From a virus (Duplodnaviria; Heunggongvirae; Uroviricota; Caudoviricetes): 51,815 nucleotides of DNA. Shown here piece after piece: positions 12,001-15,000 of the stretch (positions are counted from its first letter, which is position 1; every line of letters starts with the position of its first letter). The stretch lies in IMG/VR virus record IMGVR_UViG_2563366933_000008; one strand, written 5' to 3'. A program made the position numbers.

Positions 12001-15000
12001 TCTCGCTGTGTTGCATCGGAAAAGTGATTGCCGGAGGCGCTTATGGCAAAAGTATTTACACAAGAAGAGCGGGAAAAAATCAAGGGACAGGTTGTTGAGC
12101 TAGTACGCCGGAGTGGGCGCGAGACGTTACGGCAACTGGAAGCCAAGACAGGTGCGACAAGATATCTGATGAGCGTTCTCGCCAGAGAGCTGGTTGCCAG
12201 TGGCGATGTATACAACTCTGGCTACGGGTTATTCCCGTCTGAACAGGCTCGTAAGGACTGGCAAAATGCCCGCAAAAAACTATCTAGGGCAAAGGTGAAG
12301 AAACCATCTGTGGTTGATCCGGACCTTATCTGGTCATTACCTGACGGAGAAATACGTCGTTATGACAGGCACCAAAACATAATTTGCTGTGAGTGCCGGA
12401 AGAGCGAAGTTATGCAGCGCATACTGGCATTTTATCAGAGAAATTTTCGTTATTTATAGACGTTACTCGATTAAAGAGCATTAGTTCAGATGTGAATTGA
12501 CATTTTCACGGCACAGGATTGAGCTAGCGTGGTTGTCTGCTTTGTGTCAAAAGCAGATATTACCAGATTTAGACATCTATTCCCGATAGCCCTGCTCTGA
12601 TGCTACACTCTGTGCTATTTTCATGACCCCAATAAAAATATTTATGACTATTGCTGATTTCAAACGGCCTAAATTGGAGCTCCCAAACGGGGCAAACAAA
12701 CTACTACTGCACTCTTGCTGTGCTCCATGTTCCGGTGAAGTGATGGAGGCGCTTCAGGCCTCGGGAATCGACTATACCATCTTTTTCTACAACCCGAACA
12801 TTCATCCTCAGAAAGAGTATTTAATTCGTAAGGATGAGAATATTCGCTTTGCTGAACAACACGGCGTGCCATTTATTGATGCTGATTACGACACAGACAA
12901 CTGGTTTGAACGTGCCAAAGGAATGGAATGGGAGCCCGAGAGGGGGATCCGTTGTACCATGTGTTTTGACATGCGTTTTGAGCGGACAGCGCTGTACGCT
13001 GCTGAAAATGGTTTCAGTGTGATCAGCAGTTCACTGGGCATTTCACGCTGGAAAAATATGCAGCAGGTTAACGACTGTGGGCGGCGAGCCGTCGCGCATT
13101 ATCCGGGCATGGTGTACTGGGATTATAACTGGCGCAAGCAGGGCGGCTCGTCCCGCATGATTGAAATCAGCAAGCGCGAAAAATTCTATCAGCAGGAATA
13201 TTGTGGCTGTGTGTATTCTCTGCGCGATACCAATCTACACCGCAAATCTCAGGGACGCCCTCTTATCAAAATTGGTCAACTCCACTACGGTAAAGAAGAG
13301 AAGGAGTGATTTTATGGAGCACCTTTCTTATTGATTTCATATTGGCGAGGTAGCGGGAGTTAAGTAAAATTGCTGCGGGTGCTTGAGGCTATCTGCCTCA
13401 GGCATGAACACCAAAAGGCAGATAGAGAAAAGCCCCAGTTAACATTACGCGTCCTGCAAGACGCTTAACATTAATCTGAGGCTCAATCTATGCTGAACAC
13501 ATGTAGGTTAGCCTCTTACGTGCCGAAAGGCAAGGAGAAGCAGGCTATGAAGCAGCAAAAGGCGATGTTAATCGCCCTGATCGTCATCTGTTTAACCGTC
13601 ATAGTGACGGCACTGGTAACGAGGAAAGACCTCTGCGAGGTACGAATCCGAACCGGGCAGACGGAGGTCGCTGTCTTCACAGCTTACGAACCTGAGGAGT
13701 AAGAGACCGGGCGGGAGAGTAATCTCCCGCCACCTCTGATATGTCAGGCATCCTCAACGCACCCGCACTTAACCCGCTTCGGCGGGTTTTTTCACGTACT
13801 GTGGTTGTGAATACGATTGGTATTAGGCTATGCTAACAACATTAGCCTGACTAATTTTGTATTGACTTAATTTTTGTTAAAGAACAGGACGGAGAAGTAA
13901 GGGTACACCAATGAGCTACGCACTAAAAAAACACCCGCGATTGACTATTCCCCCTCGCGATAAAAGCGTTGTGGCAGCTCCGCGCCCGGCTATCGATGAA
14001 AATTGCACTCATCGTGAGCAGGTGAAAAATGCTTTCGATTTCGGTTTTTCTCGTTACGAGAAGGCAATGGAAGATCTTTCAAAAGTGTAATGATGGGTAT
14101 TGTGCTCTATGGCTGAGATTGTTGAAGGAGTGCACTACCTTTCGGTTGATGATCTTACTGAAATTAATCGCCTTTTAATTGAGCTTCAAACACCAGATGA
14201 ACCTGTTGGTGTGCTGAGTGTTGATAATTTAAGTTCTTCTCAGTCTCGTCCCAGTATGGTTCGATGGTATGAGCAAACCAACGACATGTTTGTACTGGCA
14301 TCGGTATTGATTGAAAGTCTGATTCAGAATCATCCATTTGCCAATGCAAACAAGCGCACAGCAATGATGGCTGGTGCGGTTTTTTTATTGTTAAATGGAT
14401 ACGAATTAACCGCACCAGGCGATGAAGTTGTGGAGATGGCTGAGGGGCTGGCCTGTAAAATTTATACACGAGAAGAGCTTGAAAATTGGTTGTGTTATTG
14501 GTCTCGTGCGTATGACAGTCGGGAATTATGTAAAACAGGCGCAACTATTGTTTTGTATGAAACTATCAAGCTTAAAATAGAACAGCAAAACTAAAGATGC
14601 TTCTAATGAAAACCCGCTTCGGCGGGTTTTTTGTTGCGTGCTGAATATGCAGGGTGAAAAATAACCATATATTTGATTATATACACAGCCAAAAATAAAA
14701 GTCATTGTACCTGCACATTAAACAATCAAATATACGACGTGAAATAAATATTTTTCAGATTAATATTTTTGTCTCTATGTGGATATAACCTTTTGTACTT
14801 ATAAACCTGGAGGCATCGTGGAAAAAATAAAGAAACTATTTAGTAGCAAATACGCAGTCATACGTCGTGATGACCTGTCAGTTATAGTCGAAATGGATTA
14901 CTTCCCTGAAACCCCAAAATCAATGATGTATCGTAATGGTCGAAAGGCAATTTTTTTACCGATGAGGGTAAGTGACATTATGGGAAATGATAAACTGCTG

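Follow-up and report, generated by a model that had tools for sequence, protein, structure and literature searches.

A probable variable cargo section in a Rac-type lambdoid prophage of Escherichia coli, with queH, hok/mok/sok and a Doc cassette bounded by a repeated terminator

Among the described systems closest to the region that we report here are the morons of HK97 and HK022 and the hotspots of P2 and P4, with which it shares presence/absence polymorphism, differing GC content and defence systems as alternative cargo. We took our definition of a moron from a published account (PMC3594210), in which a base composition differing from that of the neighbours is one of the moron traits. The region is an island at 12460-14640 in a 51,815-nucleotide (nt) stretch of viral DNA (Caudoviricetes; IMG/VR record IMGVR_UViG_2563366933_000008). 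We call this whole stretch the window, and all coordinates are positions in it. The island holds a queH gene, a hok/mok/sok toxin-antitoxin (TA) locus and a cassette with a doc toxin gene. In our view, the region is quite probably the part of a Rac-type lambdoid prophage at ttcA in which the cargo varies, with the hok module as an anchor and an exchangeable slot to either side of it.

The three modules have described relatives of their own. The phd-doc locus of phage P1 is a type II TA module whose Doc is an EF-Tu kinase; it resembles the pair in the island in being phage-borne and in having a small upstream gene followed by a Doc with its motif, but P1 is a plasmid prophage whereas the present Doc is in an integrated lambdoid prophage. 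E. coli has QueG and cannot make vitamin B12 de novo. QueG requires cobalamin, and QueH is the cobamide-independent alternative (PMC6461909, PMC9508795). The hokW-sokW locus of the Stx2 phages 933W and Sp5 is an experimentally verified type I TA module for which Hok toxicity and Sok repression were shown; on induction it brings lysis forward and raises phage release twofold (PMC8621323).

The interval 12000-15200 is a 100% match to a prophage of E. coli K56-43-un (NZ_CP053079), which in that record is a Rac-type lambdoid prophage adjoining ttcA. From the left, the order of this prophage is intR, xisR, ralR, recT/recE, kilR, sieB, ydaT, ydaU, ydaV, DUF1627, DUF977 and then the island, and on the right it continues with DUF1367, DUF1364, a DUF1133 Q-like antiterminator, two tRNAs, and lysis and structural genes. 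Pfam searches on our independently called open reading frames (ORFs) agree with this annotation of the flanks: a DnaC-like gene, DUF1627 and DUF977 are on the left (the replication side), and DUF1367, YbcO/DUF1364 and the DUF1133 Q-like antiterminator are on the right. The island begins 1 base past the stop codon of the DUF977 gene and ends 8 bases past a second copy of a terminator. It is made of three modules, which are queH (12644-13309), the hok/mok/sok locus (13342-13792) and an 840-bp Doc cassette (13793-14632).

A preliminary description of the window, made from the sequence alone, had proposed an accessory island between the replication and nin/Q modules, with a QueH-like gene, a hok-type toxin and a Doc-family toxin pair. 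We found this to be correct in its details, as the modules are separable cassettes with independent distributions and sharp breaks. Among 5,426 complete E. coli genomes, QueH is present in 995 (mostly as a single copy), hok matches occur in 4,837-5,423 (about 4,800 for the module; near-universal), and the Doc cassette is in 125, always chromosomal. All three modules occur together in only 9 of the genomes, so a universally conserved gene order, which that description had named as refuting the island, was not what we saw, and this result favours its proposal. The comparison with related prophages suggested in that description did locate the insertion boundaries, since homology to sibling prophages breaks at 12546-12561, 13312-13357, 13790-13792 and 14632. 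The three gene identifications stood; the presumed antitoxin partner of Doc is not Phd-like and belongs to a small uncharacterised family.

The right-hand slot and its borders have the following features:

13771..13792, plus strand: hok terminator, repeat copy 1 (exact repeat; fold)
13793..14632, plus strand: Doc cassette, made of a promoter region, a 59-aa gene, doc and its own terminator (precisely absent from pPE4)
13805..13834, plus strand: candidate Doc cassette promoter, TTGTGA, 18-nt spacer, TATGCT (found by eye, 4/6 and 4/6 matches; not in the consensus scan)
14611..14632, plus strand: Doc cassette terminator, repeat copy 2 (exact repeat; fold)

The 22-nt sequence AACCCGCTTCGGCGGGTTTTTT occurs exactly at 13771-13792 and at 14611-14632, where 0 such repeats were expected (100 shuffles). 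Both copies have a 7-10 bp GC-rich stem, a UUCG loop and then a U-run, with folding energies of -12.6 and -17.9 kcal/mol, so the two identical terminator hairpins seen in the preliminary description are exact repeats that fold as terminators do. An automated consensus terminator scan missed both. We rejected this miss as an artefact of the rule, going by the folding and exact-repeat searches; our guess is that the rule extends the stem into the T-run and the tail test then fails.

Phage pPE4 is 97% identical on both sides of the cassette and has a single terminator copy joined directly to the sequence from 14633 onwards. It follows from this junction that the Doc cassette was inserted or deleted with precision at the repeat, and that it measures exactly 840 bp including one repeat copy. 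The record of this phage (our locus L002; PP818812.1, "Actinobacillus phage vB_Apl-pPE4") has 97% nucleotide identity to E. coli lambdoid hok and nin regions, and the Actinobacillus host given there looks doubtful.

The junction between hok and Doc is contiguous in 120 of the 125 genomes with the cassette. We fetched five contexts (O104:H4, O157:H7, O121, enterotoxigenic E. coli and a mouse isolate), and hokD, the 59-aa gene and doc are present in every one of them together with two terminator copies. Beyond the second terminator, these five Doc-bearing loci have four unrelated kinds of sequence, and in loci that lack Doc the sequence after the single hok terminator is equally diverse. The homology of thousands of hok loci stops at 13790-13792. 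From the diversity of what lies past the hok terminator, with or without Doc, we conclude that the 3' end of the terminator is a recurrent mosaic junction.

The terminator belongs to both partners. Near-identical terminators (1-3 base differences, including compensatory CCCAC/GTGGG stems) follow doc in Xenorhabdus, Morganella, Proteus and Providencia, where there is no hok, which indicates that the terminator is native to the Doc cassette; it is native to hok as well. A third variant, AACCCACTTCGGTGGGTTTTTT, with two compensatory changes, is present in the window at 33318-33339 on the plus strand, inside the tail gene cluster and 20 nt upstream of the tape-measure ATG (33360). An identical copy of AACCCACTTCGGTGGGTTTTTT is 3' of doc in Proteus penneri (locus L029:3483).

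Outside E. coli, the 59-aa gene and doc are paired in 14 of 18 related genomes from 9 genera, none with hok upstream; the genera include Providencia, Serratia, Morganella, Yersinia pestis, Xenorhabdus, Hafnia, Kluyvera, Rosenbergiella and Proteus. In Ewingella the pair is inside a myovirus-type baseplate cluster, and in Salmonella it is in a Rac-like prophage beside hok, ParDE and VapBC. These two contexts indicate that the 59-aa gene and doc move together into other types of phage. A plasmid search for the cassette gave one weak match, to a Proteus chromosome filed as a plasmid, and so no sign of a plasmid origin. A literature search on Doc in lambdoid prophages found nothing specific. The candidate promoter overlaps an inverted repeat (AGGCTA ... 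TAGCCT), and clearer promoters (TTGACT ... CATTATA) are present at the equivalent place in Providencia and Morganella. The GC content of the cassette is 0.39-0.44 (0.31-0.43 when taken with the stretch that follows), compared to 0.49-0.54 in the backbone and a mixed 0.42-0.52 in QueH, so the cassette and the following spacer fit the compositional trait of morons.

We believe that the most likely history is recombination at the 22-nt terminator microhomology shared by hok and Doc, which would give the arrangement terminator, cassette, terminator. This could have happened, for example, when a circular intermediate inserted in the Campbell manner or when the template was switched at the hairpin, and the same repeat would permit precise loss of the cassette.

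The slot to the left of hok holds queH. Its features are:

12043..12459, plus strand: DUF977 (LygF / Ren-like) gene (Pfam DUF977 1.1e-29; phrog_142; PGAP coordinates from the identical record)
12530..12565, plus strand: hairpin ending the conserved left flank (folds at -16.5 kcal/mol, z -3.1; no strong U-run)
12644..13309, plus strand (ORF start 12623/12644): queH, predicted cobalamin-independent epoxyqueuosine reductase (Pfam PF02677)

The protein matches the Pfam QueH profile with an E value of 1.9e-65 (220.6 bits) over positions 1-174 of 175, which is the full length. It also matches T. maritima QueH (7lc5, E 5e-22), and in the alignment its C25, C26, C29, C103, C106, C187 and C189 (numbered on the 221-aa protein) coincide with the CC, CxxC and CxC cysteines of that structure. 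The metal-binding cysteines are conserved, whereas Asp13 of T. maritima QueH aligns with a Cys (CCAPC) in the phage protein. A further difference from described QueH enzymes is that a temperate phage carries this one, and that its host has QueG as well. Its amino acid identity to proteins named QueH in Erwinia, Photorhabdus, Providencia, Proteus and Pantoea is 80-86% over 94-100% of the length, and for this reason we read queH most simply as a captured host gene. The source would be an Enterobacterales lineage that uses QueH as a housekeeping enzyme. The gene has no internal stops and is under purifying selection, with a ratio of nonsynonymous to synonymous substitution rates (dN/dS) of 0.04 and a dS of 0.39 against the allele of locus L015 (these and the other ratios are pairwise, by Nei-Gojobori). 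One isolated phage, HannyBb, also carries QueH; a literature search on prophage QueH found nothing specific.

The portable QueH unit is tightly delimited at 12595-13313, and cargo slot 1 extends from about 12562 to 13312. The DUF977 gene is the left anchor of this slot and is kept in sibling prophages with differing cargo. Homology (blastn) to the variants that carry SIR2, the ATPase or DUF5677 stops at 12546-12561 and resumes on the right at 13312-13357. The hairpin at the left edge may act as a terminator. In the sibling loci L011-L014, QueH is swapped for other cargo. The alternatives in sibling prophages include Kiwa KwaA (PADLOC E 1e-101) and KwaB (3e-159), a PD-Lambda-2_C-like protein plus cll, SIR2, an Sll1717 ATPase, DUF5677 and an alpha/beta hydrolase. 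In the Qin prophage of K-12 (locus L039 2917-3670, from the K-12 derivative CJ236), relB-relE is directly 5' of hokD, in the slot that QueH has here.

The hok/mok/sok module lies between the two slots. Its features are:

13342..13370, plus strand: hok/mok promoter-like site, TTGGCG, 17-nt spacer, TAAAAT (consensus scan; ends 7 nt before 13377)
13377..13792, plus strand: full-length hok mRNA region (Rfam; minimum free energy fold of the 416-nt RNA)
13427..13497, minus strand: Sok antisense RNA (mapped from the sokW feature of 933W)
13490..13702, plus strand: mok frame, 70 aa, overlapping hok (ORF list; corresponds to the mokW annotation of 933W)
13547..13702, plus strand: hok toxin gene, 51 aa, hokD in PGAP (Pfam Hok/Gef PF01848 3e-23; phrog_251)

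Rfam RF01794, the hok/sok-family model, matches at 13377-13552 on the plus strand with 119.6 bits. The model is named "sok antitoxin", and its match is to the strand of the hok mRNA leader, whereas Sok of 933W is annotated on the opposite strand. In the minimum free energy fold, nt 1-12 (the 5' tac element, 13377-13388) are paired with nt 376-388 (the 3' fbi element, 13752-13764) in a duplex of -32.7 kcal/mol, which is the fold-back lock characteristic of hok mRNAs, and the terminal hairpin follows immediately. Another hairpin, at 13710-13731 (-23 kcal/mol), comes directly behind the stop codon of hok, but it has no U-run and is inside the hok mRNA. Sok folds into a 13-nt single-stranded 5' tail and a long hairpin (-30 kcal/mol, z -6.2). 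We found a candidate Sok promoter by eye on the minus strand, with a -35 of TTGCCT at 13533-13528, a 17-nt spacer and a -10 of TAACCT at 13510-13505. The hok gene has no internal stops, and its dN/dS is low, but there are too few substitutions for a reliable ratio (dS at most 0.12).

The module has about 95% nucleotide identity to hokW-sokW over 13357-13774 and, like it, is prophage-borne, with overlapping mok and hok frames, an antisense Sok RNA, tac/fbi pairing and the terminator. In 933W, however, hokW-sokW is amid unrelated neighbours (L0139/L0140 and L0136) and not in the interval from replication to Q. The K-12 Qin hokD (relF) differs in another way, as its upstream regulatory part is replaced by relBE. 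The K-12 hokD matches only from inside the coding sequence (query 1534 onwards), and the mok/sok leader is missing there. By analogy with hokW-sokW, the present Hok would be toxic and would be repressed by Sok. The stable hok mRNA would be locked by the tac/fbi pairing, the translation of hok would be coupled to that of mok, and Sok RNA would block mok. This near-universal module would then be the anchor between slot 1, which runs from the DUF977 hairpin to the hok promoter, and slot 2.

Slot 2, in this arrangement, would be a self-contained 840-bp unit of a promoter, a presumed 59-aa antitoxin, a Doc kinase and a terminator. Its two genes are:

13911..14090, plus strand: gene for the 59-aa presumed antitoxin, directly upstream of doc (phrog_2208, function unassigned)
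14109..14594, plus strand (ORF start 14100/14109): doc toxin gene, 161 aa, motif H75-PFANANKR-83 (TIGR01550; Pfam Fic/DOC)

Doc matches Pfam Fic/DOC at 1.7e-11 and TIGR01550 (DOC_P1) at 3.8e-35 with 120.7 bits (cutoff 38.65), which places it in the Doc subfamily. Its matches in the PDB are 9vzc (6e-14) and Doc of P1 (3k33, 1.8e-4), and H75-PFANANKR-83 aligns with HIFNDANKR of P1 Doc. The consensus motif of Doc given by Castro-Roa in 2013 is reportedly HxFx(D/N)(A/G)NKR. The phage protein has about 30 extra C-terminal residues compared to P1 Doc. The gene has no internal stops, and its dN/dS of 0.05-0.07 (dS 0.37-0.68) indicates purifying selection. If it works as its family does, it would phosphorylate EF-Tu and stop translation.

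The 59-aa gene is separated from doc by an 18-nt gap; it is on the same strand and in the same frame, with two stop codons between. It too has no internal stops and is under purifying selection (dN/dS 0.10, dS 0.61). Its protein had no match in Pfam, NCBIfam or the PDB, with the PDB searched to an E value of 10 in the same library where the Doc query found 3k33. We dismissed a match to ribosomal protein S25 (E 0.69) as chance. The family is very small: a word-indexed search gave 16 clusters at 90% identity, and an exhaustive profile search of 1.84 billion representative proteins gave 38 at 50% identity, all of them stand-alone proteins of 38-95 aa. Since no member is fused to another domain, we could make no link to Phd, PanA or other antitoxin families. 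Conservation is seen in an RLxIPxRDK motif and chiefly in a C-terminal H..QVKNAF.FGF.RYEKAME.L.KV. In an AF2 model, residues 1-33 are coil and 34-57 are a helix (pLDDT about 80), with no folded N-terminal domain. The protein is thus not of the Phd/YefM family and has no recognisable DNA-binding domain; unlike P1 Phd, it is predicted to be 33 disordered residues and one helix.

Single-domain antitoxins made of a linear neutralising element only have been discussed for Phd-C, which plugs the active site of Doc (Ernits et al. 2023, PMC10440598). The 59-aa protein is like the Phd-C type in being short and in having its conserved part in a predicted C-terminal helix, although we found no sequence homology to Phd-C. 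Going by this model, we suggest only tentatively that the partner may be a minimal single-helix antitoxin with no recognisable DNA-binding domain, and we hold this jointly with an idea on queH and vitamin B12 that is given below. The 59-aa gene is 98-99% identical to the alleles of O104, O157 and O121 (loci L004-L006), and doc is only 87-92% identical to them. This gap in identity suggests a recombination breakpoint between the two genes.

The flank to the right of the island has the following features:

14818..15030, plus strand: 70-aa ORF with a GTG start, function unassigned (phrog_1813; AT-rich spacer)
15102..15701, plus strand: DUF1367 gene (Pfam DUF1367 1.2e-97; conserved in sibling prophages)

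The 70-aa ORF is backbone and not part of the Doc cassette, as it is present in pPE4 and in strain M19 on the 3' side of the terminator. The DUF1367 gene is the conserved right anchor and the start of the nin/Q module. The stretch 14633-15030 is very AT-rich (GC 0.31-0.34), and is conserved in pPE4 and strain M19. Within it are an inverted repeat (14668-14683 / 14719-14734) and, on the minus strand, promoter-like sites (14705..14676, 10/12 matches). Elsewhere in the prophage, the RalA small RNA (Rfam RF02694, 215 bits) is at 1557-1735 on the plus strand, adjoining ralR, and this type I RalR/RalA pair is a third TA system of the same prophage. The phage tRNAs are Thr-UGU and Gly-UCC, and neither is among the four queuosine-carrying tRNA species. 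In the identical prophage (NZ_CP053079; our locus L001, in whose coordinates the first range of each pair is given), PGAP has sieB frameshifted at 15403-15892 (window about 7402-7891) and a tail-tube gene frameshifted at 39417-40378 (window about 31416-32377); ynaK is partial, and trkG is located inside the prophage.

We next weighed whether the island is a moron cluster, as had been proposed. Presence/absence polymorphism is there for each module, as Doc is absent in pPE4, QueH is replaced in siblings and hok is elsewhere in 933W. The proposal also fits hok and Doc in that each has a terminator of its own, as morons do, and hok and Doc each have a candidate promoter as well. It does not fit QueH, for which we found neither.

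Several points weigh against our reading of the region as a set of cargo modules. The promoter scan gave 5 sites compared to 5.2 expected in shuffles, with none for QueH or Doc; for QueH, this means no sigma-70-like promoter in the consensus scan. On the 3' side of QueH (13300-13345) there was no convincing terminator, and the fold was no better than shuffles (z 0.01). QueH is outside the strict definition of a moron because we found no promoter or terminator of its own. Having no recognisable promoter, queH is therefore probably read through from the early-right operon, which would be its source of transcription. For the prophage cargo as a whole, our analysis shows gene identities, module boundaries, presence/absence polymorphism, purifying selection and the architecture of the RNAs; expression, the enzymatic activities, neutralisation of the toxin and any benefit to host or phage are things that we infer. 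The antitoxin role of the 59-aa protein is presumed from gene order, size and conservation, with no detectable similarity to Phd or to solved antitoxins. The repeat alone fits either direction, insertion or deletion of the Doc cassette. Finally, the frameshifts in sieB and the tail-tube gene suggest that the prophage is possibly defective here, and that the cargo could by now be of use to the host rather than to the phage.

For the two TA modules, roles in abortive infection or stabilisation would be reasonable, going only by precedent in other systems and by the defence genes that other prophages have in the same slot. One possibility is that both are addiction modules that stabilise the prophage by killing cells that lose it, that is, by post-segregational killing after excision. 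We think this is possible but doubtful. The precedent is established, as the P1 plasmid prophage owes its stability to phd-doc and R1 owes its own to hok/sok (PMC8621323, PMC10440598), and ralR/RalA would be a third such system in the same prophage. However, a prophage that is integrated passes to daughter cells as part of the chromosome and seldom excises. Strong addiction is also hard to reconcile with a Doc cassette that occupies <1% of hok places and can be lost precisely, and the pattern of hokD in K-12 Qin is what one would expect if the sok region had gone while the prophage stayed.

We find it somewhat less likely still that the island is primarily for anti-phage defence, with hok/sok and 59-aa/Doc as abortive-infection modules by which the lysogen would die or stop growing when another phage shuts off host transcription. 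The slot in sibling prophages does hold Kiwa KwaA/KwaB, the PD-Lambda-2_C-like protein and SIR2, and hok/sok of plasmid R1 lowers T4 plating (quoted in PMC8621323). TA modules also cluster at this position in prophages of Salmonella and O104:H4, which would suit such a role. When we ran PADLOC on the island proteins, however, we obtained only marginal PDC-S23 matches to the Fic core of Doc (E 0.0016-0.004) and nothing for QueH, Hok or the 59-aa protein, whereas slot neighbours elsewhere do match. The only experiment on a near-identical prophage hok/sok found that it aids lysis and phage release on induction, which is not defence (PMC8621323). QueH has no plausible defence role and no evident link to prophage stabilisation. 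The clusters themselves are of hok, 59-aa/Doc, ParDE and VapBC in Salmonella enterica (locus L036 5496-8009) and of hok, the Doc pair and a helix-turn-helix/RelE pair in O104:H4 (locus L004 3755-5483).

We also considered that the 22-nt direct repeat is the target-site duplication of a transposable element carrying Doc, since perfect direct repeats do bound the cassette, but this is very improbable. There is no transposase and there are no terminal inverted repeats within 13793-14610, and the repeat is a terminator hairpin that is already 3' of doc without hok in other genera and 3' of hok without Doc. The idea that there is no island at all, only a conserved lambdoid backbone with coincidentally identical hairpins, has the near-universal hok in its favour and is already refuted by an arrangement seen in only 9 genomes, by the separate distributions and sharp breakpoints of the modules, and by a 22-mer with 0 expected by chance.

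We thus return to the region as a cargo section with hok as the anchor and an exchangeable slot on each side. All of the component families and the moron architecture are already known, and the island is largely an ordinary example that does not overturn current understanding. What is new is the exact anatomy of the slots, the docking of Doc mediated by the terminator, the uncharacterised Doc partner that is predicted to be only a helix, and the wide spread of phage QueH. Our literature search on lygF, on the Rac hotspot and on the slot between DUF977, hok and nin as a hotspot found none, which is not proof of absence. The island is a base-pair-resolved case of lambdoid cargo assembly, with slot junctions at hairpin ends and a 22-nt terminator as the site of both insertion and deletion. 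Because the same slot carries Kiwa, SIR2 and relBE in other strains, it is a place worth searching for further defence or fitness genes of E. coli prophages.

The idea on queH that we mentioned above is that the phage-borne gene makes the maturation of queuosine tRNAs independent of B12 in about 18% of E. coli genomes, and that lysogeny shifts the balance of epoxyqueuosine and queuosine (oQ/Q). We regard it as speculative. The activity itself is part of our main reading of the region: working without cobalamin, alongside the B12-dependent QueG of the host, the enzyme would turn epoxyqueuosine into queuosine at position 34 of tRNA-Asn, Asp, His and Tyr. If the further idea is true, lysogeny would alter the oQ/Q state of these tRNAs, and hence NAU/NAC decoding, in B12-poor niches, to the benefit of the host or the phage. 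A widespread and little-studied phage-borne QueH could in this way tie lysogeny to tRNA modification and the availability of B12.

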